Shown: positions 28,616 through 52,332 of the stretch, piece by piece
Layout: every line of letters begins with the position of its first letter
Numbering within the stretch: position 1 is the stretch's first letter
From: an uncultured Opitutaceae bacterium
GTDB taxonomy: Bacteria; Verrucomicrobiota; Verrucomicrobiia; Opitutales; Opitutaceae
Length of the DNA: 64,000 nucleotides
NCBI GenBank assembly: GCA_937902925.1
Contig: CALFNN010000080.1
Location: 1 to 64,000 of the forward strand
Direction of reading: 5' to 3'
Notes under the pieces: model-generated
Database searches by the model: none
Seen by the model: the letters and a program-made list of their open reading frames with translations, nothing else
Told to the model about the DNA's origin: nothing
Program-made: the position numbers and the translations under genes

Positions 28616-31360
28616 TTGCATTGCCATGGTGCGGCTGTTTGCCTGCGCGCCATGCTGGACTGGCTCGCGGGGAACCTCGATTACCTGCTTTACGTTTTGG
28701 GGTGTGCGATCGTTTTCGGGCTGTTGGAATGGTGGCTGCGGCGGCGGGAACCGCGGGGCCGGCTGCCGCGGTGGACCTGGCCGGCGTTTGCCGCGGTGCT
28801 CGCGGTCGGCTGGTTCATCGTCGACGCGGCGGGCGACGCGGAGCACGCGCGGATCGAGGGCTTCCTGCAAGGGGTGGCGCCGACCTACGCGCAGGAGATC
28901 GAGCGGATGGGGCACGAGCGGATCACGCGCGCCACGCCGCCGGACGATCCCGGCTACCTCGCGATGATCGAGGCGATGAAGCGGTGGAAAAAAGCGAACC
29001 CGGTCATCAGCGACGTCTACACCTACCGCCGGATCGACGGGAAGGTGCGGCTGATGGTCGACAGCGAGACGGACTACGATCACGACGGAAAGATCGCGGG
29101 GACGCGCGAACAGCGCGTGCCGATCGGCAAGGAGTATCCGGAGGCGGATCCGGACATGCTCCGGGCGCTCGACGGCAGGACGACATTTTCGGAGCAACCG
29201 GTGGCGGACGAGTGGGGCGTCTGGGTCAGCGCGCAAGTGCCGTTGCGCGACAGTGCGGGCCGCGTCGAGGGCGCGCTGGGCGTCGACTACCCCGCGGATG
29301 CGTGGCTCCAGGCGATCGCGCTCGGCCGGCAGCGCATGGAGTGGTTCCTCGCGATTCCGCTGCTGATCCTCGGGTTCGCCGGGGCGGTGACGGGGGTGTT
29401 GCGCGCGGAACTGGGGGCGCGGCGCGCCGTGGAAGCGCGACTGGGCGAGAGCGAGGCGCGGCTGCGGACCGCGATCGACAACCTGCCGTGCGATTTTTGG
29501 ATGATGGATGGCTCGCTGCGCTACACGCTGGTCAACGCGGCCTCGCGCGAGCACTGGGGCGACAACGTGGGCCGCGGGCTCGACGACCTGAAAATCGCGC
29601 AGGCGACACGCCTCGAATGGGCGGAGGTGAACCGCCGGGCGTTTGCCGGCGAGGTCGTGCGGCACGAGGTCGTCTACGAGCTGCGCGGCCGGCGGCACCA
29701 CTACTCGAGCATGGTCGCCCCGGTGCGCGTGGACGGGAAGGTGATCGCGATCCTCGGCGTGAATTTCGACATCACGGACCGGGTCGAGACCGAGGCGGCG
29801 CTGCGCCGCTCGGAGGAAAAACTCGCGTTGCACGTCCGCCAGACGCCGCTCGCGGTGATGGAGTGGAACCTCGCCTTCCGGGTCACGGCGTGGAACCCGT
29901 CGGCGGAGCGGATCTTTGGCTTCACCGCGGCGGAGGCGATGGGGCGGCACGCGGTCGGGCTCATCGTCGCGGAGCCCGGCCGCTCGCACGTCGAGCGGAT
30001 CTGGGCGGCGCTGCTGACGCACAAGGGCGGCACGCGCAGCACCAACGAGAACATCACGAAGGACGGCCGCGTGATCCGCTGCGAGTGGTATAACACGCCG
30101 CTCGTCGACGGCTCGGGGGCGGTGATCGGCGTCGCGTCCAGCGTGCAGGACATCACCGAGCGCGAGGTGCTGGAGCGGCAGCTGCACCAGGCGCAGAAGA
30201 TGGAGTCCGTCGGCCAGCTCGCGGGCGGCGTCGCCCACGAGTTCAACAACCTGCTCACGCCAATGCTCGTGCAGACCGACCTGATCGGGTTTCACTATGC
30301 ACAGGACGCGAAGCTGCTCGCCATGCTGCACCCGGTGCAGGAGGCGATCCAGCAGGCGGCGCAGCTGAACCAGCGCATCCTGGCCGTGGGGCGGCGCGGG
30401 ACGGAGCAGCGGGAATTCCAGCCGCTCAACCCGCTGGTGGAAAACGCCGTCGCCCTGCTGCGCCCCGCGCTCGACCGCCGGGTCGAGCTCACGATGGCGC
30501 TGACCCCCGGCCTGCCGGCGGTGCTGGTCGACCGGGCCCAGATCACGCAGGTCGTGATGAACCTCGTGCTCAACGCGCGCGACACAGTGCTCGAGCGCCA
30601 CCAGAAGCACATCGCGCCCGGCTGGGTTCCGCGGATCACGATCGCCACCGCGGCGGCGACCTCGGCGGAACGGCGCGACGGCGCCTCGGCGTCGCCGTTT
30701 GCGCAACCGTGCGAGCGGCTGACCGTGACCGACAACGGCTGCGGGATTTCCCCGGAACTCGGGACGCGGATCTTCGAACCGTTCGTGACGACGAAAGCCC
30801 CGGGCCAGGGCACGGGCCTCGGGCTTTCCGTGGTGTGGAGCGTGGTGCACAGTCTCGACGGATGGATCGAGTTCGAGCCGGGTCCGGCGGGCGAAGGCAC
30901 GAGCTTTCATGTGTTCCTGCCGTTGCTCGAACCGCCCGCGGCGCTGGTCGGCGGCACGATGAAAACGGCGGCGGGCGAATTCAGGCTGGGCCGCGCGGCG
31001 GCGCGACCCCTGCGCGTGCTGCTGGTCGAGGACAACGCACTGGTGGCGGACACGTTCGCCGCGCTGCTCACGACGGCGGGGCACACGGTCACGGCGGCGG
31101 TCGACGGCCAGGAAGGCTGGGAACTGTTCAAGACTCCTGGCGCGCACCACGATTTGGTGCTGGCCGACTACAATATGCCGCGACTGAACGGCGCCGAGCT
31201 GCTGGAACGCATCAAGGGCTCGGGCTTCGCCGGCCGGGTCGTGATTGTCAGCGGTTACCTGACCAGCGACAAAGTCGAAGAGCTGACGCGGCTCGGCGCG
31301 GACGCGGTGCTGAAAAAGCCCGTGACACCGGCGAAGCTGCTGGCGGCGCTCGAGGGGTAG
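28616..31360 (+). CDS. hybrid sensor histidine kinase/response regulator with periplasmic sensor and PAS domains
   Basis: Two TM helices flanking a periplasmic domain, two PAS-like segments, HisKA (GVAHEFNNLLTP), HATPase (DNGCGISPE...GTGLGLSVV), C-terminal REC (LLVEDNALV...DLVLADYNMPRLNG). Confidence 0.85.
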   Translation: MHCHGAAVCLRAMLDWLAGNLDYLLYVLGCAIVFGLLEWWLRRREPRGRLPRWTWPAFAAVLAVGWFIVDAAGDAEHARIEGFLQGVAPTYAQEIERMGHERITRATPPDDPGYLAMIEAMKRWKKANPVISDVYTYRRIDGKVRLMVDSETDYDHDGKIAGTREQRVPIGKEYPEADPDMLRALDGRTTFSEQPVADEWGVWVSAQVPLRDSAGRVEGALGVDYPADAWLQAIALGRQRMEWFLAIPLLILGFAGAVTGVLRAELGARRAVEARLGESEARLRTAIDNLPCDFWMMDGSLRYTLVNAASREHWGDNVGRGLDDLKIAQATRLEWAEVNRRAFAGEVVRHEVVYELRGRRHHYSSMVAPVRVDGKVIAILGVNFDITDRVETEAALRRSEEKLALHVRQTPLAVMEWNLAFRVTAWNPSAERIFGFTAAEAMGRHAVGLIVAEPGRSHVERIWAALLTHKGGTRSTNENITKDGRVIRCEWYNTPLVDGSGAVIGVASSVQDITEREVLERQLHQAQKMESVGQLAGGVAHEFNNLLTPMLVQTDLIGFHYAQDAKLLAMLHPVQEAIQQAAQLNQRILAVGRRGTEQREFQPLNPLVENAVALLRPALDRRVELTMALTPGLPAVLVDRAQITQVVMNLVLNARDTVLERHQKHIAPGWVPRITIATAAATSAERRDGASASPFAQPCERLTVTDNGCGISPELGTRIFEPFVTTKAPGQGTGLGLSVVWSVVHSLDGWIEFEPGPAGEGTSFHVFLPLLEPPAALVGGTMKTAAGEFRLGRAAARPLRVLLVEDNALVADTFAALLTTAGHTVTAAVDGQEGWELFKTPGAHHDLVLADYNMPRLNGAELLERIKGSGFAGRVVIVSGYLTSDKVEELTRLGADAVLKKPVTPAKLLAALEG

Positions 31361-31423
31361 GGGCGCGGCGAAGGAATCCCCGGCGCGCCTCGATTCGGAG
31401 CGTGAAGCCGCCCGTCCCGCCGG

Positions 31424-33586
31424 TCAGCGCGCCTGCGCCGGGTAGCGCCGGAGATCGAGGGTGTAGCGGCTCTCGGGCGGGAAATCGATTTTGGGAATGA
31501 AACGCTCCTGGCCGAGCGTTTTCTTCCACGGCTCCCAGCGCTCGGCGCGACGGGCGGCGGCCTCGGCGTCGTCGGCGGGGACGGCGGCGTAGTCGGCGTT
31601 GCGGGGATTCCAGACGTGCCAGCGGGCGGCGGCCACGACGCGCAGCGTGGCGCGATCGACCCATTCGAGCAGCAGCGGCGCGTGCACGGGGACGTGCGGC
31701 TGGAGCGACGGCGTGAGATAAAACGCGCGATAGCGGATGCCGCAGGCGCAGCCCCCGTCGGCCGTCGGGCGGAATTCGCAGGGGAGGCCGTTGACGAGGA
31801 GGAGGCCGCCCTCGAGGAACTTTTTATCGGAGAGACGCGCCTCGAGGCGGTCGACGCTCGAGTCGACGGTGCGGGCGACGGTGCCGGCGTTGGGCGACTC
31901 GCCGAGGAGCGGCCACGCTTCGAGCGCCTGGCGAAACTCGAGGGCGAACTCGCCGTTTTTTTTGTCGCCCAAGGCGAACTCACCGAGTTTCGGGAAACGA
32001 AATTCCCACGGCGGGCGGAGCCATGCGGGGTCGAACGCGATGGCGTGTTTTTTCAGATCCTCGCAGATCGCGACGAGGTCCTCCCGGACAAAGGCGGGGA
32101 GAAAGAACCGGTCGTGGAGTTCGCCGGCCCAGCGGACGAAGGGCGCCGGGAACGGCGCGGCGCAGAGGCGCGCGAGGATGGCACGGACGAAGAGAGCGGT
32201 GACGGATTGGACGGCGGGCGCGGGATGGGTCTCGAACGCGCGGAACTCGACGAGGCCGAGACGGCCGTTCGGCGCCCAAGGGTTCCAGAGCTTGTCGACG
32301 CTGATCTCGGCGCGGTGGGTGTTGCCCGAGCGATCCATCAGCAGGTCGCGGAAGAGCAGATCGAAGAGCGCGAGATTTTGCGGCGAGCCGAGATTTTCGG
32401 CGCCGGCGCAGGCAAGCTCGAGTTCGTAGAGCGCCTCGAAGGTGGACTCGTCGATCCGCGGTGCCTGCGAGCTCGGGCCCATGTAGGCGCCGGTGAAGGC
32501 GTAACTGAGCGCCGGGTGGTGCTGCCAGTAGCGGATGATCGACGGGAGCAGCGCGGGGAACGCGAAGAACGGCGAGAGCAGGCCGGCGGGTCCGCCGAAA
32601 ACAAGGTGCGCGCCGCCGCCGGTGCCGACCTCGCGGCCGTCGAACTGGAGCTTCCGCGCGCAGAGGCCGCAGGTTTGCGCCGCGGCGAAAAGTTGGGCGA
32701 GCTGCCGGTCGAAGTCGACCCAGGTCGCGCAGGGCGAGACGTTGATCTCAAGCACGCCCGGATCGCTGGCGAGGCCGACGGTCGGCAGCGCGGCGTCGGC
32801 CGGCGGCGCGTAGCCGGCGAGCACGACGTCGGCGAGTTTCAGTTTGGCGAGGGTCTTTTCGATCTGCGGGAGCAGGTCGCAATAAGCGGGGAGCAGCAGC
32901 GGCGGGATGAAAATCGTCAGGGTGCCGGCGCGGATTTCGGCGGTGAGGGCGCGGCGGAGATTTTTCTCGCCGAGCTTCGCGAGCGGCAGGCGGAGGCCGG
33001 CGGGGCTTTCGCCGGGAAAAAGCGGCAGCGGGCCGGCGCCGAGCGCGGGCGTCCAGTCGTCGGTGAGCCAGCGCGTGCCGTCGTGGTCGAGCGGGAGGAC
33101 GCAGCCCGTGACAGCGTCGGGGGCCGCCGTCTCGGCGAACGGGAGGCAGTGCGTAGAGTCGACGGCGAGGGATTTGGCGAGGGCGACCGCGAATTTTTTC
33201 GCATCGGCCGGAGTGTGCGGGCCGGGTTCGGTGTCGGCGCGGAGGCGGGTGATATCGCGCCAGAGCCGCGTGCCGTCAGCGCGATGCTGGATGAGCAGCG
33301 CCCAGCGCGGCAGCGGTTCGCCGGGATAATGTTTGCCGGAAGTCTCGAGGATGACGGAGCCGGGAAACGCGGAGCGAACGAGTTCGCGAGCCAGGCGGCG
33401 CGCATAGGCGAGTTTCGTGGGGCCGAGTGCGGCGGTCTGCCACTCGGCGCCGCTGGGAGCGGCGGGAACGAAGGTGGGCTCGCCGCCCATCGTGAGCGAG
33501 ACGTGGTGGCGGTGGAGCGAGGACTCGACGGCGCGGCCGCACGCGAGGATTTTCTTCCAGACGGGAGCGGCGTAGGGCGTGGTCAT
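31424..33586 (-). CDS. DUF2126-like large protein of the cpATP-grasp/alpha-E/transglutaminase cluster
   Basis: 720 aa with no TM; the pattern (PTFVPAAPSGAEW...) and position 3' of two transglutaminase genes fit the DUF2126 family member of this conserved cluster. Assignment from memory of family features only. Confidence 0.55.
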   Translation of the reverse strand: MTTPYAAPVWKKILACGRAVESSLHRHHVSLTMGGEPTFVPAAPSGAEWQTAALGPTKLAYARRLARELVRSAFPGSVILETSGKHYPGEPLPRWALLIQHRADGTRLWRDITRLRADTEPGPHTPADAKKFAVALAKSLAVDSTHCLPFAETAAPDAVTGCVLPLDHDGTRWLTDDWTPALGAGPLPLFPGESPAGLRLPLAKLGEKNLRRALTAEIRAGTLTIFIPPLLLPAYCDLLPQIEKTLAKLKLADVVLAGYAPPADAALPTVGLASDPGVLEINVSPCATWVDFDRQLAQLFAAAQTCGLCARKLQFDGREVGTGGGAHLVFGGPAGLLSPFFAFPALLPSIIRYWQHHPALSYAFTGAYMGPSSQAPRIDESTFEALYELELACAGAENLGSPQNLALFDLLFRDLLMDRSGNTHRAEISVDKLWNPWAPNGRLGLVEFRAFETHPAPAVQSVTALFVRAILARLCAAPFPAPFVRWAGELHDRFFLPAFVREDLVAICEDLKKHAIAFDPAWLRPPWEFRFPKLGEFALGDKKNGEFALEFRQALEAWPLLGESPNAGTVARTVDSSVDRLEARLSDKKFLEGGLLLVNGLPCEFRPTADGGCACGIRYRAFYLTPSLQPHVPVHAPLLLEWVDRATLRVVAAARWHVWNPRNADYAAVPADDAEAAARRAERWEPWKKTLGQERFIPKIDFPPESRYTLDLRRYPAQAR

Positions 33587-33595
33587 GGCGGCGGA

Positions 33596-34465
33596 CTACA
33601 ATTTGTCGACGGTCAGCGTGGCATGCAGGTTCGACGCCACCGGGCCGGAGCTGTAGAAATTGCCCTGGATCGGGTTGACGCTTTCGGCGAGGGCGGAATG
33701 GGCGAGGGGAACGAAGTTGTCGTCGCAAAAAATCCCGCGCGTCGGATCGAGGCCGCGCCAGCCGGCGCCGGGCAGATAGACCTCGGCCCACGCGTGGAGC
33801 GCCGGGGGCAGCGGCGAGGCGAGGTCGGGGGCGGGCGGTTCGTGGAGGTAGCCGCTGACGAAGCGGGCGGCGAGGCCGAGTGTGCGGCAGAGGGCGATGA
33901 AAAACACGGCGTAGTCGCGACACGAGCCGCCGCCGCGCGCGAGCGTGCCGGCCGGCGTCTGGATGCCGGGTTCGTCGCGGCGCGCGTAGACGAGCGCCTG
34001 GCGGACGGCGGAGTTCAGTGCGGAAAGAAAAGCGACGGTGTCGGCCGGCGGCGAGGGCAGGTGGGCGGCGAGCCAGGCGCGGAGCTGGGTTTCGTCGGAG
34101 CCGGCCGGCGGCACGAGGCAGGGCGAGAGCGCGTAAAGCTCGGCGGGCTCGTAGGCGAAGGGAAAGGAGAGCGCGGACGACTTGAGAAAGAAATCGAACG
34201 GGTTGGCGTCGAGCGTCTCGGCGAGGATTTCCGAGCGAAACTCAAGGACGGTGGCGGGCGTGTCGGCGGCGAAAAACGCCCACTCGAGGGCGTTGCCCTC
34301 GACGTCGCTGGTGGCGACGCGGCGGGCGGCGGGGCTGACGTCGAGCTTGAACTCGTGCAGCCGCTGGCGCGGCGTCTCCCGCGGGCGGAGGTAAATCGCA
34401 TGCGGCGCAAACGTCACCGGCTGCGCGTAGGTGTAGCGCGTGAGATGGTGGATGCGGAGAAACAT
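33596..34465 (-). CDS. transglutaminase-family protein (Bact_transglu_N + TGase core)
   Basis: MFLRIHHLTRYTYAQPV N-terminal domain and catalytic Cys context GGGSCRDYAVFFIALCRTLGLAARFVSGY, with His/Asp downstream. Confidence 0.8.
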   Translation of the reverse strand: MFLRIHHLTRYTYAQPVTFAPHAIYLRPRETPRQRLHEFKLDVSPAARRVATSDVEGNALEWAFFAADTPATVLEFRSEILAETLDANPFDFFLKSSALSFPFAYEPAELYALSPCLVPPAGSDETQLRAWLAAHLPSPPADTVAFLSALNSAVRQALVYARRDEPGIQTPAGTLARGGGSCRDYAVFFIALCRTLGLAARFVSGYLHEPPAPDLASPLPPALHAWAEVYLPGAGWRGLDPTRGIFCDDNFVPLAHSALAESVNPIQGNFYSSGPVASNLHATLTVDKL

Positions 34466-34492
34466 GGGCGGACGGGCGGCGGCGCGCCGCGG

Positions 34493-35353
34493 CTAGACGG
34501 CGACGGGCGCGGCCGTCTCGCGGACGGTGACCTCGACCTTGAGCGAACGCGTGGGCGCGCCGCGGTAGGTGCCGTTGACGGGGCGGATGTCCGCGTAGTC
34601 GCGACCGACCGCGACCTTGACGTAACGATCGTCGGCGGCGCGGTTGTGCGTCGGGTCGAACGCGGCCCAGCCGTGGCCGGGCACGTAGGCCTCGATCCAC
34701 GCGTGCGAGGCCTCGATCTCGCGCGGACGGCGGGTGTCGTTGAAAAAATAACCGCTCACGTAGCGGGCGGGAATGCCGACGCTGCGGCAGAGACCGAGGA
34801 GCACGTGGGCGAAATCCTGGCAGACGCCCGTGCGCAGCTTGAGCGCCTCGGGGGCGCGCGTGTTCACGCCGGTGGAGTTCGGTTTGTAGGCGAAGGTCTT
34901 GTAGATGTGTTCGCCGAGGCGGCGGACATCGCTCCACACATCGGCACGGCCCACCGCGAGCGCGTCCTGGGCCTCGCGCCAGAGTTCGACGTCGAGCGGG
35001 ACGTAGTTGGAACTCGTGTAGAACTCGGCGAGCATCTCACGCTCCGGGGCGACCTCGAGCGCGGCGGCGGAGACGACGGGCACGGCGGGGCGCTCGGCCG
35101 TCGGCACCGTGTCGACCATGGACGTGGCCTCGATGATCAACTTGGTGTGCGGTGCGGCGACGTCGAAGTAGTGGATGGTGTTGCCGTAAAAGTCCTCGTA
35201 TTCGCGGGTCGCGGCCGACGGCGTGAGCTCGAGCTGGAACTCGCGGCAATGCTGCAGCGGATCGCGCAACGGCTGGAGGCGGACCTCGTTGAAGCTGTCG
35301 TGCGCCTTGCCGGCGTAGGTGAAGGTGGTGCGATGGACAACGCGAAGATTCAT
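34493..35353 (-). CDS. transglutaminase-family protein (paralog)
   Basis: MNLRVVHRTTFTYAG...TGVCQDFAHVLLGLCRSVGIPARYVSGY...ASHAWIEAY. Start at cat 35351-35353; upstream 73 codons are run-on. Confidence 0.8.
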   Translation of the reverse strand: MNLRVVHRTTFTYAGKAHDSFNEVRLQPLRDPLQHCREFQLELTPSAATREYEDFYGNTIHYFDVAAPHTKLIIEATSMVDTVPTAERPAVPVVSAAALEVAPEREMLAEFYTSSNYVPLDVELWREAQDALAVGRADVWSDVRRLGEHIYKTFAYKPNSTGVNTRAPEALKLRTGVCQDFAHVLLGLCRSVGIPARYVSGYFFNDTRRPREIEASHAWIEAYVPGHGWAAFDPTHNRAADDRYVKVAVGRDYADIRPVNGTYRGAPTRSLKVEVTVRETAAPVAV

Positions 35354-35414
35354 GGCGTCGGGCCGGGTGGGCGGGGCGCGGCGGAAGGGGAGCGGGAACG
35401 GAACGAGGCGACAG

Positions 35415-36467
35415 CTATTGCTGCTGCTGTTGCTGCTGCTGTTCCTCGATCGAGGACTCCGCGGGGTAAAACATGGTCGTCTGGACGACTTCGTCGCCGA
35501 TGGTGTCGAGGGTGGCTTGGATATCCATGAGGAATTCGTGCAGGCCTTGGTCCAGCACATCGGTGATGGCAAGCGATTGCAGGTCGGCGAGGAGGCGGCG
35601 CGAGGCGCGGCCGGCGGCGGTGCGGGGGCGGGCGCCGGTCTCGCCGAGGATGCGGCGGAGAAACTCGTCGACCTGCGCGACGCAGAAATGCAGCGAGCGG
35701 GGGAAGGAGTCGGAAAAAATGAGAAACTCGCCGACCTTCCACGGAAGGATTTCGCGGACGTAGAAACGGCGGTAGGCCTCGAGCGCGCTGGCGGAGCGGA
35801 GCACGGCCTGCCATTGCGCGGTGTCGACCGCGCCGCCGACGTCGGTCGCGCTGGGAAGCAGGATGTGGTATTTGACGTCGAGGATGCGGGTGGTCTTGTC
35901 GGCGCGCTCGAGGTATTTGCCGAACTCGATGAATTCCCAGCCCTCGCTGCGCGAATAGGTCGAGGTCGTGAGGCCCTGGAAGAGATGGGCGGCGCGCTTG
36001 ACGTTGTTGAAGAACTCGCCGGCGCCCGTCGCCCAGATCTCCTCGGAGCTGCGGTCGTGGAGGTAGAGGTAGAGCTCGTTGATCGTCTCCCACATCTCGG
36101 CGGAGATCTGGTCGCGGATCATGCGGGCGTTCTCGCGCGCGGCGTTGACGCAGCCGCGGATGGAGTTCGGATTACGCAGGTCGAACGCGAAATACTCGGT
36201 GACGTTGTGGCTGTCGGCGATGTCGTAGTGCTTCGCGAATAATTCCTCGTCGCCCGAGCTGAGCAGGATCGAGCCCCAGTGCTCCTTGATGGTGGTGTCG
36301 GTGAAGCCCTGGAAATCGAGCAGGAGCTGGAGGTTGACGTCGAGGAGGCGCGAGAGGTTTTCGGCGCGCTCGATGTAACGGCTCATCCAATAGAGCGAGT
36401 GCGCGACGCGGGACAGCATCACGGTCGCCTGCGGGCGGAGGAGGGGGGCGTTGGCGGGGGTGGGCAT
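35415..36467 (-). CDS. alpha-E domain protein (DUF403), with C-terminal poly-Gln tail
   Basis: MLSRVAHSLYWMSRYIERAENLSRLLDV is the canonical alpha-E N-terminus. Ends EEQQQQQQQQ, encoded by (CAG/CAA)8. Confidence 0.8.
   Translation of the reverse strand: MPTPANAPLLRPQATVMLSRVAHSLYWMSRYIERAENLSRLLDVNLQLLLDFQGFTDTTIKEHWGSILLSSGDEELFAKHYDIADSHNVTEYFAFDLRNPNSIRGCVNAARENARMIRDQISAEMWETINELYLYLHDRSSEEIWATGAGEFFNNVKRAAHLFQGLTTSTYSRSEGWEFIEFGKYLERADKTTRILDVKYHILLPSATDVGGAVDTAQWQAVLRSASALEAYRRFYVREILPWKVGEFLIFSDSFPRSLHFCVAQVDEFLRRILGETGARPRTAAGRASRRLLADLQSLAITDVLDQGLHEFLMDIQATLDTIGDEVVQTTMFYPAESSIEEQQQQQQQQ
35418..35446. repeat. (CAG/CAA)8 trinucleotide repeat encoding a poly-Q tail
   Basis: ttgctgctgctgttgctgctgctg on plus strand, in frame at the 3' end of the alpha-E gene. 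Confidence 0.8.
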
Positions 36468-36600
36468 GCTTTTCAGAAGCTCCAGACTTCAAGCGCCAAG
36501 CTCCAGAGAAACCTCGAAAATCGAAGTCGGGAAAATCAGGAGCTGGGAGGTTGGGAGCTTCATGGGAGCTTGGAGATTGGTGCCGGGAGCTTCCGGCTCG
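36468..36600. repeat. intergenic palindromic repeat element (CCAAGCWCC-unit family), copy C (inverted)
   Basis: caagcgccaagctccagagaaacctcgaaa is the reverse complement of tttgaagtttctctggagcttgg in copies A/B; also ggagcttggagattggtgccgggagctt. Confidence 0.65.
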
Positions 36601-36606
36601 TCCGGC

Positions 36607-38067
36607 TCATTCGTCGCCCTGGAGCACCCAGGTGTCCTTCGAGCCGCCGCCCTGGGAGGAGTTGACGACGAGCGAACCCTTGCGGAGCGCGACGCGCGTG
36701 AGGCCGCCGGGTGTGACGGTGATCTTTTCGCCGTAGAGGATGTAGGGGCGCAGGTCGATGTGGCGGCCCTCGAGGTGGCCGTCGCACCAGGTCGGCGAAC
36801 GCGAGAGATTGATGGGATCCTGCGCGATGAAGTTGCGGGGATTGGCGGCGACCTGGGCACGGAAGGCCTCGCACTCCGCCTTGGTCGACGCGGGGCCGAT
36901 CAGCATGCCGTAGCCGCCGGCCTCGTTGGCGGATTTCACGACGAGCTTCTCGATGTTCTCCAGGATGTATTTCCGCTGGAGCGGCTCGGAGGCGAGATAC
37001 GTGTTCACGTTCGCGAGGATCGGCTCCTGGTCGAGGTAGTATTTGATGAGCTGGGGGACGTAGGCGTAGATGACCTTGTCGTCGGCGACGCCGGTGCCGA
37101 TGGAATTGGCGAGCGCGACATGGCCGGAGCGGTAGGCGTTCACGAGGCCGGGCACGCCGAGCATCGAGTCGGGCCGGAAGACGGACGGGTCGAGAAAATC
37201 GTCGTCGATGCGCCGGTAGATGACATCGACCCGCACGAGCCCGGCGGTCGTGCGCATGAACACGCGGTCGTCGCGGACGACGAGATCGCGGCCCTCGACG
37301 ATGGGGATGCCCATCTGGCGCGCGAGGAAGCTGTGCTCGAAATAGGCGCTGTTGAAGACGCCGGGCGTGAGGAGGACGACGCTGGGCTTGTCGCTGCGGG
37401 CCGGGGCGAGGTGGAGAAGCGCCTTGAGGAGATCGTCCGCGTAGGTCTCGACCGGGCGGACGCCGTAGCTCTGAAACAAATTCGGAAAGGCGCGGCGCAT
37501 CGCGCTGCGATTTTCCACCATGTAACTCGCGCCGGACGGACAGCGGAGGTTGTCCTCGAGCACGAGGTAGTTGCCGCGGGCGTCGCGAATCAGGTCGGTG
37601 CCGCAGATGTGAACGTAGATGCCGCGCGGCACCTTGCAGTTCATGAACTCGCGGCGGAAATGCTTCGCGCCGAGGATGAGCGCGGGCGGCACGAGTTTGT
37701 CCTTGAGGACCTTCTGGCCGTGATAGACGTCGTCGAGAAACAGGTTGAGCGCCGTGATGCGCTGCACGAGGCCGGCCTCGATGCGGGACCACTCGGCGTT
37801 CGGGATGACGCGGGGGACGAGATCGAACGGGAAGATGCGCTCGGTGCCCTGCGAATCGCTGTAGACCGTGAAGGTGACGCCGCGCCGCAGAAACGCGAGG
37901 TCGACGGCGCCGCGCCGCTGCTCGAACTCGTCCCGGGCCAGCGTGCCCAGCCGCTCCGCGAGGCGGCGGTAGTGGGGGCGCACGTCGGTGGACGACGTGA
38001 ACATCTCGTCGAAATAGTCGGCGGTTTCGTAGCTGGGATTGAGGATCGACAAGGAGGGTTTTGACAC
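36607..38067 (-). CDS. circularly permuted type-2 ATP-grasp protein
   Basis: Conserved family signature throughout ([11 protein letters not shown]...[34 protein letters not shown]...). GTG start (cac 38065-38067). Confidence 0.85.
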
Positions 38068-38125
38068 GGGCCCGCTGGTTGAGCAGTTCCCTTGCCAGAC
38101 AGGCTCGCCGGGCGGCCGGGGGTCG

Positions 38126-39001
38126 TCAACGACGCAGCACGGTAAACACCGTGCCCGCCAGGATCAGCGCGGCGCCGGCCAGTTCGTGGACGGTGAAATG
38201 CTCGTGGAAAAACGCCGCGCCGCCCGCGGCGACACCGAGCGGCACCAGCATTTGCAGCAACGATCCCTCGCCGACCGGCAGGTCGCGGAACGCCCGGGTC
38301 ATGGTGAGTTGACCGCTGCCGGCGGTCAGGCTGGCCAGGAGCAGGACGCCCCAGGCGGCGGGGGAAAGCGGCGCGAAGGTGGCCACGGCCGGCACGGTGC
38401 AGATCAGGAGGCCGTAGACGCATTGCGCGGAGAAGATCGTCGAGGTGTGCTCGGTCGCGTGCAATTGTCGGATCATCACGACCACGTAGGCCGAGCCAAA
38501 GGCGGAAAGGATGGCGACGAGATCGTAGAAGCCGGGCCGGGCATCGAGGGCGAGGAGGTTCGTGAGCAGGGCGAGCCCGGCCAGCGCGGCGGCGCTCCCG
38601 GCGAGCAGGGCGGGTCGGAGCCGTTCGCGCAGGATCCACGCGGCAAGCAGCGCACCCCAGATCACGTAGGTGTTGTTGATGAAAATCGCGCGGCCGGCGC
38701 CGAGGTGGATGACGGCGAGGTAAGTGAGGTAGACCCCGAAGCCGCCGACGAGCCCGCGCTCGGCGAGCTTGCGGCGGCGGAAGAGATGCGACGGCTCGAA
38801 CTCGCGCCAGTAGACGGCGGCGATCAGCCCGAGGCCGACGACGAACCGGCTGCACGAGACGAGCCAGAGATTGGCGGCGTGCATCTCGCCGAGCGCCCGC
38901 ACCAGGAGGACATTCGCCGTGAAACACGCGGTCGAAACGAGCATGAGCACCACACCGCGGGCGTGGTGCGACGAGCTGGGCGGCGACGGTTGGTCGGTCA
39001 T
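38126..39001 (-). CDS. DMT-superfamily (EamA-like) transporter
   Basis: Ten predicted TM helices in two EamA-like halves. Confidence 0.75.
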
Positions 39002-39102
39002 CGGGAAGGCGCCCCGATGCTCGGCTGCCGCAAAGACGAACGGCAATGGGAAACGCGGGCGGCTGCCCAGGCCGGCCGAATTGGATCAATCCGCTGCGCG
39101 AC

Positions 39103-40479
39103 TCACAACGCGTGCAGTGCGGACTTGCTGACGGCGAGCGCGGCTTCCTTGACGGCCTCGCTCATCGTCGGGTGGGCGTGGATCGTGCGCGCGAGGTCCT
39201 CGGCGCTGCCGCCGTATTCCATGTGCGTGACGACCTCGCTGATGAGCTCGCCCGCGCCGCGGCCGAGAATCTGCGCCCCGAGGATTTTGTCGGTCTTCGC
39301 GTCCGCGACGATCTTCACGTAGCCGTCGGTGGCGTCGGCGGCGATGGCGCGGCCGTTGGCGGCGAAATTGAACTTGCCGACGTTGACGGCGATCCCCGCG
39401 GCCTTCGCAGCGTCCTCGCCGAGGCCGACGCTCGCGACCTCGGGGTCGGTGTAGACGATGGCGGGGACGAGATCCCAGTTCACGTGGCCGGCCTTGCCCG
39501 CAATCCATTCGGCGACGGCCACGCCGTCTTCCTCGGCCTTGTGGGCCAGCATCGGACCGGCGACGACATCGCCGATCGCCCAGACGCCGGGGGCGGACGT
39601 GCGCAGGTGGTTGTCGACCTTGATGCGCTTCTTGTCGTCGAGTTGGACGCCGGCCCGGTCGAGCGCGAGGCCGTCGGTGAACGGGCGGCGGCCGACGGCG
39701 ACGAGGACCTTGTCGGCGGGAATGGAAAGTTTTTCGCTGGCGCGCGCGGCGGTGAGGACGCCCTTGGCGAAGCCGGTGACCTTGGCGCCGACCTCGATCT
39801 TCATGCCTTGTTTCTGGATCAGGCGGGTGAAATTCCGGACGATGTCGGCATCGTAGGTCGCGATGATGCTGGGCAGGAATTCGACGACGGTCACGTCGCT
39901 GCCGAGCCGCGACCAGACGGAGCCGAGCTCGACGCCGATGACACCGCCGCCGACGACCACGAGTTTCTTCGGCACGGAATCGAAGGCGATGGCGTCGTCG
40001 CTCGAGACGACCGTCTGGCCGTCGAACTTCAGAAACGGCAGCTCGACCGGGGCGGAGCCGGTGGCGATGACGATGTTTTTCGCGGTGAGCTTTTGATCGC
40101 CGATGGCCATCGTGCCGGCCGAGACGAACGACGCGGCGCCGGTGACGACGGTGATCTTGCGGGCCTTGGCGAGCTGGGCGACGCCACCGGTGAGCTTCGC
40201 GACGACGGCGTCCTTCTTTTTGAGGAGCGTGGCGAGGTCGAGCTCGATGGAGCCGAGTTTTACGCCATGATCGGCGGCGTGCTGCCTGGCGAAGACGTAG
40301 TGCTCGGAAGAGGAGAGCAGGGCCTTGCTCGGGATGCAGCCGACATTGAGGCAGGTGCCGCCGAGCGTGGCGCGTTTCTCGACGAGCGCGACCTTGAGGC
40401 CGAGCTGCGCGGCGCGAAACGCGCAGACATAGCCGCCGGGGCCGGCGCCGATGACGATGAGATCGAATTCGGAGGGCAT
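39103..40479 (-). CDS. lpdA: dihydrolipoyl dehydrogenase (E3)
   Basis: [26 protein letters not shown] motif, redox-active [16 protein letters not shown]-binding and dimerisation domains. Confidence 0.9.
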
Positions 40480-40546
40480 GAGGAGAGTTGAATTCAGAAG
40501 CCAGGAAACCAGGAAACAAGTCTTGGCTTCATGGCTTTTGAATTCG

Positions 40547-41782
40547 TCAGATTCCGATCACGAGACGCGCGGGATCCTCGATCGCCTGTTTCACTTTCAC
40601 GAGGAAAGTGACGGCTTCCTTGCCGTCAACGAGGCGGTGGTCGTAGCTCAGGGCGACATACATCATCGGGCGGATGACGACCTGGCCGGCGATCGCGATG
40701 GGGCGGTCGTTGATCGCGTGGAGGCCGAGGATGGCGCTTTGCGGCGGGTTGATGATCGGGGTCGAGAGCAGCGAGCCGAACGTGCCGCCGTTCGTGATCG
40801 TGAAGACGCCGCCCTCGAGATCGGCGAGCGTGATCTTGCCCTCGCGGGCGCGCTTCGCGACGTCGGCGATGGATTTTTCGATGTCCGCCATGCCGAGCGT
40901 GTCGCAACCGCGAATGACCGGGACCATGAGGCCCTTGTCGGTCGAGACGGCGATGCCGATGTCGTAGAAATGATTTTCGACGATGCTGTCGCCGTCGAGC
41001 TGGGCGTTGACCGCCGGGACTTCGCGCAGGGCGTGGACGACGGCCTTCGCGAAGAACGACATGAAGCCGAGCTTGAGGCCGTTTTTCTTGACGAAGTCGT
41101 CCTGATATTTCGCCCGGAGCGCCATGACGGCGGACATATCGACCTCGTTGAACGTGGTGAGCATGGCGGCCTCGTGCTGGGCGGCGACGAGGCGCTGGGC
41201 GATCTTGGCGCGGAGCGGGGAGAGCTTTTTGCGCGTCTGGCGCTCCCCGGTGACGACAGGCGCGGAAACTTTTTGAACGGGCGCCGGCGTTGCAGCCGGG
41301 CCCGTTGCGCCCGGCCCGGAACTGGCGGCGCCGGCGGCAACGGCGGGTTTCGCCTCGGCGGCGGCAAGCATGTCGCCTTTTGTGACGCGGCCGGCCTTGC
41401 CGGTGCCGGCGACGGTGGCGGGGTCGAGGCCGGTCTCGGCAGCGAGGCGGCGGACGGCGGGGGAAACAGTGGCGGAGTCGCCGGTCCGAGATGATGTGGC
41501 CGGGCTCGCTGAGCCCGGGCCGGGGTCAGCGACCCCGGCTACAACTGCGGGATCGATCGTGGCGACGACCTGGCCGATTTTCACCTCGTCGCCGACGGCG
41601 GCCTTGAACGAGATTTTTCCCGCGGCCTCCGCCGTGCCCTCGCTCGTGATCTTGTCGGTCTCCAGCTCGAAGAGCGGCTGGTCCTTTTTGACGACGTCGC
41701 CGTCGTTGACGTGCCACTTGGCGAGAATACCGGAGGTGATGGATTCACCCATCGGCGGGATTTTTACTTCGAGGAGGGGCAT
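40547..41782 (-). CDS. sucB: dihydrolipoyllysine-residue succinyltransferase (E2 of 2-oxoglutarate dehydrogenase)
   Basis: Lipoyl domain ETDKITSE, E3-binding domain, catalytic domain with DHRLVDG. Confidence 0.85.
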
Positions 41783-41825
41783 GGGAAAAATTGCGGTGTG
41801 ATGGGTGGCGTGGGACGAAACAGAA

Positions 41826-44612
41826 TCAGAGACTGAAGGCGTCGTTGAGGAGAGCGGCGACCTCGAAACGATGGAGGGCGAGGGTGCCGACGGCGGGCGA
41901 GGCGGCGGCGTCGCGGCCGGCGTAGAGCGGGAGGAAGCCGAAGATCTCGGCGAACTGCGGGCAGACGTAGGACCAGGCGCCCATGTTCTGCGGCTCCTCC
42001 TGGCACCAGACGACGCGGGCGCCGGCGTAGCGGTCGGCGAGCTCGGCGAGGTGATTGCGATGAAGCGGATAGAGCTGTTCGAGGCGCACGATGGCCGTGT
42101 CGGTGAGCTGCTTCTTCGTGCGATAGTCGATGAGATCGTAGTAGACCTTGCCGGAACAGAAGATCAACCGGGCGGGCTTCGCGTCGGCGAACGACGGATC
42201 GTCGATGACTTCCTGAAACGCGCCGGCCGTGAATTCGGCGAGTTTCGAAACCGCGGCGGGATGGCGGAGGAGCGACTTGGGCGACATGACGACGAGCGGC
42301 TTCTTGACGTCGCGCTTCACCTGGCGGCGGAGGGCGTGAAAGAAATTGGCGGGCGTCGTGATGTTGGCGACCTGGATGTTGTCCTCGGCGCAGAGCTGGA
42401 GGAAGCGCTCGAGGCGCGCGGAGGAATGCTCGGGGCCCTGGCCCTCGTAGCCGTGCGGGAGCAGCAGCACGATGCCGCTCGTGCGCTGCCATTTCGATTC
42501 GCCGCTGGCGATGAACTGGTCGATCACGACCTGCGCGCCGTTGGCAAAATCGCCGAACTGCGCCTCCCACAGGCAGAGCATGTTGGGGAAATCGAGCGAG
42601 TAGCCGTAGTCGAACCCGAGCACCGCGGCCTCGGAGAGGAGCGAGTTGTAGACGCAGAAGCGCGCCTGCTGCGGGTCGAGATTTTTCAACGGCGCGTAGG
42701 TGTTGCCGTTGTCCATATCGTGCAGCACGGCATGCCGGTGGCTGAAGGTGCCGCGCTCGCAATCCTGGCCGCTGAGCCGGATCGGCTCGCCCTCGAGGAC
42801 GAGCGTGCCAAACGCGAGCGCCTCGGCGAAGCCCCAGTCGATCGGGCCGCCGTCGCGATGGGCGTTCACGCGGGCGTCGAGGAAGCGCTTGATCTTCGGG
42901 TTGGGCTTGAAGCCGGCGGGCAGCGTCGTGAGGCCGCGAACCACGCGGTCGATGAGTTCGGACGAGACGCCGGTCGGCACGGGTTTGAAATGGAAATCCG
43001 GCTGGAAGACGGCGGTAGAGCCTGCGAATTTTTTCGCCTCGGCGGCGGCGGCGCGCTTGGCGGACTTGGCGGTCTCGGTGGCCTTGGCCATCTCGAGGTT
43101 CTTCTCGAGCGCCTCCGAATACTCCGCGCGAATCGCCTCGGCCTTGGCCTCCGTGATGGTGCCCTCGGCGATGAGCTTGCGCGTGAGCACGGCGGAGATC
43201 GCCGGGTGGGCGGCGATTTTCTTGTAGAGGAGCGGCTGGGTGAAGGCGGGCTCGTCGGTCTCGTTGTGCCCGTGCTTGCGGTAACAGAACATGTCGATGA
43301 CGACGTCGCGCTGCCATTTCTCACGGAATTCGAGGGCGAGGCGGGCGACCAGGCAGACGGCCTCGGGGTCGTCGCCGTTCACATGGAAGATCGGCGCCTC
43401 GATCATTTTCGCGACGTCGGTGCAATAGAGCGTCGAGCGCGAGTCGCTCGGATCGGTCGTGAAACCGATCTGGTTGTTGATGACGAAATGCAGCGTGCCG
43501 CCGGTTTGGTAGCCGGGGAGTTGGGAGAAATTGAGCGTCTCGGCGACGACGCCCTGGCCGGCGAACGCGGCGTCGCCGTGGATGAGGAGCGGCAGGACGG
43601 TGGTGCGGCGCTCCATGTCGCCGCGGGCGCGCTGGCGGGCGCGGGCGCGGCCTTCGACGACGGGGTTGACGATCTCGAGGTGCGAGGGATTCGAGGTGAG
43701 GCGGACCTCGACCTGCTTGCCCGAGGCGGTGTCGAGGACGGCGTGGTAGCCGAGGTGGTATTTCACGTCGCCGTCGCCGCCCACGGCGTCGGGGAGGTAG
43801 TTTTCGGAAAACTGCTCGAAGAGGACATCGAAGTGTTTCCGCATGACGCTGGTGAGGATGTTGAGCCGGCCGCGGTGGGCCATGCCCATGACGACCTCGG
43901 CGACGCCGGCGCGCGGGCAGTGCTCGATGATCGAGTCGATCGCGGCGATCATGGTCTCGCCGCCCTCGAGCGAGAAGCGTTTCTGGCCGACGTATTTCGT
44001 GTGGAGAAAGCGCTCGAAGAGCTCGGCCTTGTGGATGCGGCGGAGGATGCGGATTTTCTCGGCCTTGGAAAAATCGGGCTGGTTGCGCGTCGTCTCCATT
44101 TTTTCCTGGAGCCAGCGGCGGACGTCGACGTCCTGGATGTGGGTGTATTCGACGCCGATATGGTCGCAATAGGTCGTGCGGAGCGCGATGAGGATGTCGC
44201 GCAGCTTCATCTGGCCGCCGCCAAGGTAGGTGCCGATGTCGAAGAACGTGTCGAGGTCGGCGTCGGAGAGGTTGAACGCGGCGAGGGCGAGCTTGGGATG
44301 GGGCTCGGGCGGCTCGCCGAGGGGATCGAGGTGGGCCTCGAGGTGCCCGAGCGCGCGATAGGTGTTGATGAGATGGTGGACGTGCGACTGCTTGAGGCTG
44401 TCGATGATGGGAGTCGCGGCGGCGGGATGGGTCGATTCGGCGAGCGCCGCGGAAGGCGTGGCGCCGGAGTTGCCGAGGGTGAAGCCCTGAAAGAACGCGC
44501 GCCACGTCGGGTCGACCGAGTCGGGATTTTGCAGCCACGATTCGTAGGCCGCCTCAATGACGGCGGCATTGGCGGCGGTGGGCAGCGAGGAGGAAGATTT
44601 GACGGGAGACAT
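41826..44612 (-). CDS. sucA: 2-oxoglutarate dehydrogenase E1 component
   Basis: ~930 aa with the E1o N-terminal [18 protein letters not shown] and TPP-binding regions. Start at cat 44610-44612; upstream 34 codons run-on. Confidence 0.9.
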
Positions 44613-44748
44613 GCGGATGGTCGCGCGCGGCGCGGGAGCAAAGAAACGGAGGGTCAACGAAACACGGCGGCCGCGCAGACTCAAGTGCGGCGCGGACCGC
44701 GACAGGGATTGCAAAGAGCCTTAACGTGGGTAACAGCGGGATTAGTAT

Positions 44749-48604: not shown

Positions 48605-51600
48605 TCAGCTTTCCAGGACGATGAGGGTTTCGCCGGCGTTGACGGGGCGGCCTTCGGCGCAGCGGATTTCGCGGACTTTGCCTGCGCGGCTGGCGACGAC
48701 GGTGATTTCCATCTTCATCGATTCGAGGATCACGAGCGCGTCACCCTCGTTGACGGCGGCGCCGGCGGCGACGGCGATTTTCCAGACGTTGCCGGGGATA
48801 TGGGCGATCACGGCGGTGCAGCCGGCGGGAATCGCCTGCTCGTCGACGGCGGCGGCCGAATCGGATTCGGAGGAGAAGTTGAGCTGGCCGGAAATCTCCC
48901 AGCGATGGCGCTCGGCCTCGAAGGCGGCCTGCTGGCGGGATTTGGCGGCGGCGATCGTAGCGGCGTTGGCGGCGAGAAATTTTTCGTAGTCGCGGAGACG
49001 GAAGGTCGTTTGCTCGATTTTCAGCTGCGCGCGACCGTGGGTAAAATCTTCACGGAACTTCGTGAGCTCGGCGTTCGTGACCGGATAGAAACGAATCTGG
49101 TCGAAGAAGCGGAGGAGCCACGGGTGGCCGTCGGTGAACTCGGCGGTTTGCTTGTAGCGGTTCCACATCTGGCAGGTGCGGCCGATGAACTGGTAGCCAC
49201 CGGGGCCCTCCATGCCGTAGACGCAGAGGTAGGCGCCGCCGATGCCGACGGCGTTTTCCGGCGTCCAGGTGCGGGCAGGATTGTATTTCGTGGTGACGAG
49301 ACGGTGGCGCGGATCGACCGGGGTGGCGACGGGGGCGCCGAGGTAAACGTCGCCGAGCGCGAGGACGAGGTAGCTTGCCTCGAAGGCGATGCGGTGGACG
49401 TCGGCGACGGAATCGAGGCCGTTGATGCGGCGGATGAACTCGATGTTGCTGGGGCACCACGGCGCGTCCTTGCGGACGATCTGCATGTATTTGCGGATCG
49501 CGAGAAGGGTGGACTCGTCCTCCCAGGAGAGCGGCAGGTGAACGATGCGCGAGGGCACCTCGATGTCGTCGACGGCGGGGAGTTCGGACTCGGCGCGGAG
49601 CAGAATCTCCATCAGGCGTTCGAGCGGAAGCAGGCGGGCGTCGAAATGAATTTGGAGCGAGCGGATGCCGGGCGTGAGGTCGACGATGCCGGGGAGGTGG
49701 TGGCGTTCGAGCCAGGTTTGGAGCGCGTGGACGCGCATCCGGAGCGCGATGTCGAGGACGAGCGGACCGTATTCGACGAGGAGGTAGGCGTCGCCGGCGC
49801 GGCGGTAGACGACCGCGGGGGCGGCGGGGCGGGCGGGGATGGCGTGGAGGATGGCGGGTTCGGAGGGCGAGGAATGACGAATGACGGATGACGAATGACG
49901 AATGGCGGAGAGGCGGAGGGATTCGATTTCGGCGTCCTGGGCGGTCGCGATGATCCGGGCTTGTTCGGCGGTGAGGGCACGGAAGCGGACCTTGTCGCCG
50001 GGCTTGAGCTGGCCGATTTTCCAGAGTTCGCCGCTGGCGATCGTCGCGGGACAGACGAAGCCGCCGCAACTCGGGCCGTCGGGGCCGAGGATGATCGGCA
50101 TGTCGCCGGTGAAATCGATCGCGCCGATCGCGTAGGCGTTGTCGTGGATGTTCGAAGGGTGCAGGCCGGCCTCGCCGCCGTCGCGGCGCGCCCACTGCGG
50201 TTTCGGGCCGATGAGGCGGACGCCGGTCCGGGCGGAGTTGTAGTGGACTTCGTAGATGGCGCTGAAGAGAGCGGCGATGTCGTCGTTGGTGAAAAAATCT
50301 GGCGCGCCGTGCGGGCCGTAGAGGACGCCGATATCCCAGTCGCGCGTGAGCGGCGAGTGGATCGAGGCGGGTGCGCGGAGGAGCGGAGCGGCGTCGGTCA
50401 CGCCGGCGGGCGTGGCGCGATTGACGCGAAGGACATCGCCGGTGCGGAGGGCGCGGCCGGAGTGACCGCCGAAGAGGCCGAGCGTGAAGGTGGATTTGCT
50501 GCCGAGGTAATCCGGGACGTCGAGGCCGTGGCGGATGGCGAGGTAGGCGCGGAGGCCGGGGCCGTCGACGGAAGCGAGTTGGAGGGTCTGGCCGCGTTTG
50601 ATGCGAAAGGCGCGATGAAAGGCGATGGGTTTGCCGTCGAGCGTCGCGGGCATGTGCGCGCCGGTGAGCGCGACGACGGCGGCCGTGTTGAAGCGGAGCC
50701 TGGGGCCGTTGACGGTGAGTTCGAGGCCGGCGGCGGTGTCGGGGTTGCCAACGAGACGGTTGGCGAGGCGGAACGAGCGGCCATCCATCGGGCCGGAGGG
50801 TGGAACACCGACGTCCCAATAGCCGAGGCGGCCGGGATAATCCTGCACGGTGGTCTGGGTGCCGCCCTCGAGGACGTCGATCGTCGAGGCGGCGTAGGGC
50901 AGCGTGGCGAGGTATTTGGTGGTGACGCCGCCGGCGCGAAACCCGGTGGAGGCGGCGATCTGGCGAAGGTAGTCGAGATTGGTTTCGAGGCCGTGGAGGC
51001 GGGTGTCGGCGAGGGCGGCGTCGAGGCGGGCGAGGGCATCGGCGCGGTCGGAACCGCGGACGATGATTTTCGCGAGGAGCGGATCGTAGAACGCGGAGAC
51101 CTCGGTGCCGCGCTCGATCCACGTCTCGATGCGGGCGGACGTGGCGAAATGGACGTCGGTGAGGGTGCCGGCGGCAGGTTGAAAGTTTTTGCCGGGATCC
51201 TCGGCGTAGACGCGGACCTGGATCGAGGCGCCGGTGGAGGCGGGCGTGAAGTTGGAAAGATCAAGTTCGCCGGCGGCGGCGCGAAGCATCCATTCGACAA
51301 GATCGATGCCGGTGACTTCCTCGGTGACGCCGTGCTCGACCTGGAGGCGCGTGTTGACTTCGAGAAAATAGAATTCGCCGGTGGCGTTGTCGTAGACGAA
51401 TTCGACGGTGCCGGCGTTCTGGTAGCCGGCGGCGGCGCCGAGGCGGGCGGCGCAATCGAGGAGGCGCGTGCGCTGCGCGGGCGACAGGCCGGGAGCGGGC
51501 GTCTCCTCGATGACCTTCTGGTTGCGGCGCTGGACGGAGCAGTCGCGTTCGCCGACGGCGACGACGTGGCCGCGGCCGTCGCCGAAAATCTGGACCTCGA

Positions 51601-52222: not shown

Positions 52223-52228
52223 CGGAAA

Positions 52229-52332
52229 GGTGTCTCGCGAAGGATTCGAAGGGGACGAAGGTTCGAAAAAAGGAGAGCCGGAATATCTCTACTGGATTGG
52301 ACGTTCGCTTCCTTCGTATCCCTCGCGAGACA
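52229..52332. repeat. CGAAGG-unit imperfect hairpin element immediately upstream of uca start
   Basis: Arms gtgtctcgcgaaggattcgaaggggacgaagg and cgttcgcttccttcgtatccctcgcgagacat; same family as 48487-48590; single arms at 52743-52780, 54805-54837, 45450-45500. Confidence 0.65.

Follow-up and report, generated by a model that had tools for sequence, protein, structure and literature searches.

What do the bacterial gene clusters that combine a circularly permuted (cp) ATP-grasp protein, an alpha-E protein and transglutaminases do in the cell, and is a copy of this system in an uncultured Opitutaceae bacterium (Verrucomicrobiota) in any way peculiar? With or without a DUF2126 protein and the proteasome-like Anbu, few bacterial gene clusters that lack a known reaction are as widespread as this system. 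The copy considered here comprises five genes at positions 31424-38067 of a 64-kb stretch of DNA (positions 1-64,000 of contig CALFNN010000080.1; hereafter the window), which is high in GC (~67%). The region probably forms one sigma-54-dependent operon encoding an Anbu-less, split-gene cpATP-grasp/alpha-E/transglutaminase/DUF2126 system for the making and breaking of amide bonds. New in this copy are a sigma-54-type element in front of the first gene, support for a glutamine synthetase (GS)-type fold in DUF2126 and a conserved oligo-glutamine tail in alpha-E.

Gene content of the cluster

The five genes are all on the minus strand, co-directional and without overlap, as the original prediction had it, and the Pfam assignments and the gene order are likewise upheld. 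The first gene encodes a cpATP-grasp protein of type 2 (36607-38067; PF14403 CP_ATPgrasp_2, E = 8e-166) and the second alpha-E (35415-36467; PF04168, E = 7e-97). They are followed by genes for two proteins with Bact_transglu_N and Transglut_core domains (Pfam), called here TG1 (34493-35353, within an open reading frame (ORF) at 34493-35572) and TG2 (33596-34465; 289 aa), and by the gene for a stand-alone (split) DUF2126 protein of 720 aa (31424-33586; PF09899, E = 2e-198). This supports the proposed match to the conserved, uncharacterised cpATP-grasp/alpha-E/transglutaminase system, for which the formation or remodelling of peptide or amide bonds has been predicted. The same five-gene order recurs in Opitutaceae loci with enough flank. 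No NCBIfam model matches any of the five proteins, and PADLOC gives no defence-system match for any of six proteins.

The GC content at third codon positions (0.87-0.90) favours the called frames over long plus-strand shadow ORFs. The real start of TG1 is the ATG at 35353, which gives a protein of 286 aa; the 359-aa ORF from the TTG at 35572 runs into alpha-E. As judged from the alignment with the conserved GTG of relatives, cpATP-grasp probably starts at the TTG at 38052 (MSILN...) and not at the GTG at 38067.

A split last gene

Two features had been singled out as particular to this copy, a transglutaminase gene duplicated in tandem and the reduced length of the DUF2126 member. Neither is particular to it; both belong to an ordinary and common split-gene layout. 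TG1 and TG2 are only 28% identical (97 bits). TG2 matches the N-terminal modules of fused transglutaminase-DUF2126 proteins with 98-169 bits in 27 of 28 cases (55 bits in the other one), and reaches 172 bits against the large protein of Burkholderia and 158 bits against Ponticaulis, whereas TG1 scores 49-87 bits against the same 27 modules and finds its best match in a stand-alone Burkholderia transglutaminase (174 bits). These scores rule out a recent tandem duplication. Fused proteins of 980-1033 aa are collinear with TG2 plus DUF2126 (289 + 720 aa); longer fused ORFs occur in Ponticaulis/Hyphomonadaceae (1109-1113 aa) and in Burkholderia cenocepacia (1148 aa). TG2 is therefore orthologous to the fused module, being the detached N-terminal part of the 'large transglutaminase-DUF2126' protein. 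The length of the DUF2126 member is no peculiarity either. Representatives of 3094 clusters at 50% identity match DUF2126 at E < 0.001, and the best 150 of them comprise 86 DUF2126-only proteins (640-870 aa), 28 fused proteins (at least 940 aa), 2 intermediate forms and 34 fragments. By its sequence relationships, the locus corresponds to the known four-gene cluster with its last gene split and without Anbu.

TG2 and DUF2126 share a reading frame, with one TAG (33596-33598) and three codons between them, and might thus look like a gene recently broken by a nonsense mutation or a sequencing error, or like two halves re-joined by read-through of the TAG. Across 17 Opitutaceae loci from a genome scan, in which the split layout was compared, a single stop separates in-frame ORFs in seven; all four TAG cases are in-frame and none of the TAA cases permits single-stop read-through, a pattern noted post hoc. 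Against this stands the constancy of the split. The best 120 database homologues of the read-through product, all from Opitutaceae/Verrucomicrobiota and 72-100% identical, are without exception DUF2126-only proteins of 693-764 aa, and in 17/17 loci a real stop, which may be TGA, TAA or TAG, closes TG2 after 288-290 aa, at a distance from DUF2126 that varies from a 4-nt overlap to 165 nt. A nonsense mutation or pseudogene is ruled out by this conservation. Programmed read-through fares no better, since the frame is common to both genes in 8 of the 17 loci where 5.7 are expected by chance, a non-significant excess, and the spacer peptides are unconserved. The broken-gene and read-through readings are largely refuted and very improbable. 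In two Opitutaceae loci (L009 and L017), the TG2-DUF2126 pair stands apart, without cpATP-grasp, alpha-E or TG1 in the 20 kb covered, which supports the view of the system as two modules.

A candidate sigma-54 promoter

Directly upstream of the cpATP-grasp gene lies a 16-nt -24/-12 element, TGGCAAGGGAACTGCT (38082-38097, minus strand; TGGCAAG-N4-CTGCT), recognized by pattern match and conservation, with the -24 GG at 38095-38096 and the -12 GC at 38083-38084. The pattern TGGCANNNNNNYTGCT has a single match in the window (0.12 expected). In 14 related Opitutaceae loci it likewise occurs exactly once per locus, and every time the match immediately precedes cpATP-grasp. In an anchored comparison of the 15 loci, C-TGGCAAG-N4-CTGCT-A is invariant and its flanks are unconserved. 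As expected of a sigma-54 promoter, GG and GC are 10 nt apart, the context resembles TGGCAC-N5-TTGCW and the element stands 20-40 nt before the start codon. No sigma-70-like site was found in 31000-39300. Collectively, this argues strongly for a sigma-54 promoter at this position. The strict pattern has no match upstream of the Ponticaulis or Acidithiobacillus caldus copies, and the stand-alone TG2-DUF2126 pairs are preceded by weaker, unconvincing sigma-54-like sites (in L009, GGCACG-N4-CCGCT before TG2). A weaker motif, GCGNC-N2-TTGAC, occurs ~30-45 nt further upstream of the -24/-12 element in roughly half of the 15 loci.

The proteobacterial counterparts suggest when such a promoter would be active. 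The Burkholderia copy is preceded by GGCACGTTCCTTGCA and an NtrC-like TGCACC-N5-GGTGCG site. The Burkholderia cluster I35_5080-83 is sigma-54-dependent, and its expression is 6- to 9.4-fold lower in an ntrC mutant (PMC5491218). In P. putida, expression of PP_2688 and PP_2685 is higher on nitrate than on ammonium (PMC8050072), and a note in a further report places the Anbu operon among the genes most induced under nitrogen limitation (PMC3235984). In marine metagenomes, the domains of the cluster vary together with those of urea metabolism (PMC3597751), and RpoN is generally encoded by Verrucomicrobia (PMC3372290). By analogy, the inducing signal in Opitutaceae would be nitrogen limitation.

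Two predicted ligases and two predicted thiol enzymes

The cpATP-grasp protein matches PF14403 with 552 bits (cut-off 32) over profile positions 1-374 of 374. It also matches PDB 3n6x (E = 9e-171), a structural-genomics entry described as a 'putative glutathionylspermidine synthase'. The homologous ATP-grasp of the Yersinia operon liberates phosphate from ATP (PMC6376114).

Both transglutaminases align to PDB 3isr (TG1 over its full length, E = 7e-20) with Cys-His-Asp intact. The catalytic triad, which the original prediction had proposed to compare in the two paralogs, is thus present in both: C178/H217/D233 in TG1, kept in 16/16 orthologues, and C182/H224/D240 in TG2, kept in 18/18. With both domains and the triad intact, TG1 and TG2 are predicted transglutaminase-fold Cys-His-Asp enzymes.

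The DUF2126 protein matches PF09899 with 662 bits (cut-off 27), in three stretches because an insert of ~80-100 aa ahead of residue 210 is missing from its subfamily. For neither alpha-E nor DUF2126 is a solved relative detectable by sequence, and 'DUF2126' as a query finds no papers in the searchable literature. A model built from a 56-sequence alignment is confident (predicted local distance difference test (pLDDT) 94.2, predicted template modelling score 0.94) and has a GS-type core fold, of the kind seen in glutamine synthetase, Glu-Cys ligase and PafA. Among such enzymes, glutamine synthetase, Glu-Cys ligase and YbdK-like proteins score above PafA/Dop against DUF2126. Invariant residues include E36, E90, D275, E280, H424, E447 and R449 (E447-x-R449). 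The modelled fold supports the assignment of DUF2126 as a GS-fold carboxylate-amine ligase.

A proposed make-and-break cycle

The operon would encode two modules. In one, the cpATP-grasp ligase would be joined by alpha-E, its obligate helical partner, and by the stand-alone TG1; the other would pair TG2 with the GS-fold ligase DUF2126, two proteins that in many other bacteria form a single polypeptide. An enhancer-binding protein would switch the operon on under nitrogen limitation, as in the proteobacterial counterparts. Both ligases would form amide bonds from ATP through acyl-phosphate intermediates, and both Cys-His-Asp enzymes would cleave or transfer bonds of the same kind (gamma-glutamyl or peptide amides) via a thioester. 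Together, they may run a make-and-break cycle on a Glu/Gln-type substrate. The analysis shows the domain identities, the gene order, the orthology of TG2 with the fused module, the fold of DUF2126, the intact triads and the conserved promoter motif; signal, activities and substrate are what we infer.

Several points weigh against this proposal. Neither the window nor the related loci hold an rpoN gene or a gene for an enhancer-binding protein (GAFTGA-type). The 16-mer departs from the proteobacterial consensus (TGGCAA instead of TGGCAC and CTGCT instead of TTGCT), and could be the operator for another regulator. In DUF2126 the first-strand motif GGE36-P-T38-F is of the form E-x-T, in contrast to the E-x-E of many GS-fold ligases, so that the chemistry may not be quite the same. 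No activity or substrate is reported for any member of the system in the searchable literature to 2026, and Rv2411c and Rv2567 are still uncharacterised. The proteins of the Yersinia operon showed no detected interactions with one another (PMC6376114).

The oligo-glutamine tail of alpha-E

Here as in related loci, the alpha-E gene comes directly after cpATP-grasp, and its product matches PF04168 with 325 bits (cut-off 20.8). An AlphaFold2 model is all-helical (pLDDT 76), and in a fold search alpha-E matched only generic four-helix bundles. The C-terminus reads ...AESSIEEQQQQQQQQ, that is Glu-Glu-(Gln)8, with eight Gln codons (35418-35441, minus strand; a mix of CAG and CAA) followed by TAG. 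It is the sole run of at least four Gln among the ~15,700 predicted residues of the window, in which the Gln frequency is 3.2%. The tail is predicted to be disordered because its pLDDT is below 50.

All Opitutaceae alpha-E orthologues have a Gln-rich tail, with 6-10 Gln that are sometimes interrupted and usually form the last residues. A profile search for homologues returned close relatives only; a metagenome scan with the alpha-E alignment contributed 80 further loci at 40-77% identity. Among 98 complete alpha-E ORFs, 55 have four or more consecutive Gln in their final 40 residues. Distant Gln-tailed groups carry the recurring motif [VL]QQE[EM]QQQQ, and some other alpha-E proteins have Q-x-Q-x-Q tails. 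Tail-less proteins stop ~28 residues past a GLHE[FY]L motif; in Opitutaceae-related lineages where this motif can be located, tailed ones have 7-13 extra residues, 54-89% of them Gln. In a neighbour-joining tree one group is tail-less and mostly Anbu-linked; in the other, Gln-tailed proteins make up at least three deep sublineages, among which tail-less or Q-alternating forms are scattered. No mention of the tail was found in the searchable literature.

The presence of the tail is related to the next gene. In 49 informative loci with a Gln-tailed alpha-E, this gene encodes a transglutaminase in 39 cases and Anbu in one, and in 34 informative loci with a tail-less alpha-E the numbers are 7 and 19 (seven Opitutaceae next-gene calls of 'TG2' are really TG1, an effect of an over-long TG1 query). 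The anti-association of tail and Anbu is strong (Fisher ~1e-8, from a set of ~100 loci that are phylogenetically non-independent), and sampled alpha-E genes followed by Anbu are almost always without a Gln tail.

It is conceivable, though doubtful, that the system uses this tail as its substrate or primer. The transglutaminase-fold enzymes would then attack its Gln side chains, by deamidation or thioester transfer, and the ATP-dependent ligases would next use either the Glu side chains so produced or the C-terminal carboxylate. Such a sequence of steps would resemble that of Pup, of which a Gln is deamidated by Dop and then ligated by PafA, or the use of C-terminal tails by RimK, TTL and LysX-LysW. 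Beside enzyme folds directed at Gln, an oligo-Gln tail makes a cheap and specific candidate substrate.

Alternative functions

Two other functions have to be weighed against the proposed cycle. In the hypothesis of Iyer and Aravind, restated in PMC3495828, the system would tag proteins in the manner of pupylation or of tubulin tyrosination/glutamylation, the ligases attaching an amino acid or a peptide as the tag and the transglutaminase-like peptidases removing it. The same genes adjoin Anbu in other lineages, and DUF2126 has similarity to PafA/Dop. In addition, RimK, TTL and LysX-type ATP-grasp enzymes modify acidic C-terminal tails, which the Glu-Glu-(Gln)8 end of alpha-E resembles. Other observations speak against tagging. 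No Pup-like ORF (25-130 aa, with C-terminal Gly-Gly-Gln/Glu or similar) is present in 27-42 kb, tblastn with two Anbu proteins found none in the window or in 19 Opitutaceae loci, and no Proteasome domain occurs among the cluster genes or the neighbours scanned at 20-52 kb. The metabolite ligases outscore PafA/Dop, as noted above, and the recurrent transporter neighbours (EamA, APC permease, porin) would fit a small-molecule substrate better. Tagging is thus unlikely.

Less likely still is a secreted peptide or amide natural product. Two amide ligases are present, and an EamA/DMT transporter gene lies upstream (38126-39046, minus strand; PF00892). An EamA orthologue adjoins the cluster in 7/15 related loci, five times upstream and twice moved downstream of DUF2126 on the same strand, and in an eighth locus it lies ~2.7 kb upstream. 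The original prediction was right about the presence of this gene; the exporter role that it suggested is possible but not established, and membership in the cluster is uncertain. The sigma-54-type element lies between the EamA gene and the cpATP-grasp gene, which therefore places EamA outside the transcription unit here, and about half of the relatives have no EamA in their flanks. A biosynthetic cluster is also at odds with the lack of a precursor ORF in 27-42 kb, with the very wide distribution of the system, evident from the 3094 cluster representatives that match DUF2126, and with its nitrogen regulation in proteobacteria, which is atypical of such clusters.

Comparison with known systems

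The closest parallel is the cluster I35_5080-5083 (BCAM1233-1236) of B. cenocepacia H111. It encodes four types of protein, cpATP-grasp (DUF404/407), alpha-E (DUF403), transglutaminase and transglutaminase-DUF2126, whose kind and order are as here, and it too has a sigma-54-type promoter upstream. TG2 and the N-terminus of the large Burkholderia protein share 40.5% identity, and the DUF2126 parts share 37-42% over two aligned segments. The differences are that the last gene is fused in Burkholderia and split into TG2 and DUF2126 here, that Burkholderia alpha-E has no Gln tail, and that only Burkholderia has a second set downstream, consisting of a cpATP-grasp-alpha-E fusion (882 aa) and a transglutaminase.

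The Anbu operons of P. putida (PP_2685-2688) and Yersinia bercovieri have the cpATP-grasp, alpha-E and transglutaminase core in common with this cluster. The Anbu operon is induced by nitrogen limitation and its function is as uncharacterised as that of the present cluster; it contains Anbu, and the present cluster does not. The DUF2126 ligase and a second transglutaminase are present here. In Ponticaulis, Anbu follows alpha-E and lies opposite the fused transglutaminase-DUF2126 gene. A variant cluster next to glnL (NtrB) is found on a megaplasmid of A. caldus (NZ_CP005987.1, 16651-32867). Its order is Anbu, a TG2-like gene, an unannotated gap of ~1.4 kb and an 842-aa DUF2126-only protein, then cpATP-grasp, alpha-E, an OmpL-like porin and an APC permease. 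The surroundings also hold a second Anbu paralogue and insertion sequence elements.

PafA and Dop are GS-fold enzymes that act on the C-terminal Gln/Glu of Pup, and DUF2126 is only 10-12% identical to them. Unlike their systems, the present one has neither Pup nor Mpa/proteasome, its motif is E-x-T and not E-x-E, and the hydrolytic step would fall to thiol enzymes of transglutaminase fold. A likeness of another kind is offered by glutathionylspermidine synthetase/amidase (GspSA), in which an N-terminal papain-like thiol amidase precedes a C-terminal ATP-dependent ligase that makes the bond broken by the amidase. The logic and the domain order are those of fused transglutaminase-DUF2126; the folds differ (CHAP versus transglutaminase, and ATP-grasp-like versus GS-fold). 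PDB 3n6x, whose entry name recalls this enzyme, is the structure closest to the cpATP-grasp protein; nothing points to glutathione or polyamines as substrates here.

Intercistronic spacer and neighbouring genes

Between cpATP-grasp and alpha-E lies a structured spacer of 139 nt (36468-36606, minus strand) with AGCTCC-type inverted repeats and a minimum free energy of -49.7 kcal/mol (z -2.4). According to approximate tblastn coordinates, four relatives (L012-L015) have a comparable spacer of ~150-230 nt and most others have little or none. The spacer is variable among relatives and therefore optional; a small repeat element inserted at this point, or a hairpin for mRNA processing, could account for it.

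Directly upstream of EamA and the cluster is a complete 2-oxoglutarate dehydrogenase operon (39103-44714, minus strand), composed of sucA (41826-44714), sucB (40547-41782) and lpd (39103-40479). Several relatives also have lpd near the cluster. A urea carboxylase of 1227 aa (48605-52288, minus strand), with biotin carboxylase, CT_A_B, CT_C_D and biotinyl domains, is encoded ~10 kb upstream; it represents a further nitrogen-scavenging function and is also within the Burkholderia NtrC regulon. On the other side, the plus-strand gene for a hybrid histidine kinase of 914 aa (28616-31360; PAS, HATPase_c and receiver domains) converges on the 3' end of the DUF2126 gene.

Biological significance

This copy leaves the identity of the system unchanged. 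The promoter footprint, the DUF2126 fold and the Gln tail add modest, testable value. The footprint indicates that the same regulatory logic reaches from Proteobacteria to Verrucomicrobiota. If the tail of alpha-E were indeed a substrate or primer, alpha-E would be a carrier, tag or sensor protein and not a passive subunit, and the cell's nitrogen status could be reported or exploited through the Gln/Glu state of the tail. That Gln tail and Anbu nearly exclude each other would in this case point to one pathway that can be run in two alternative ways.

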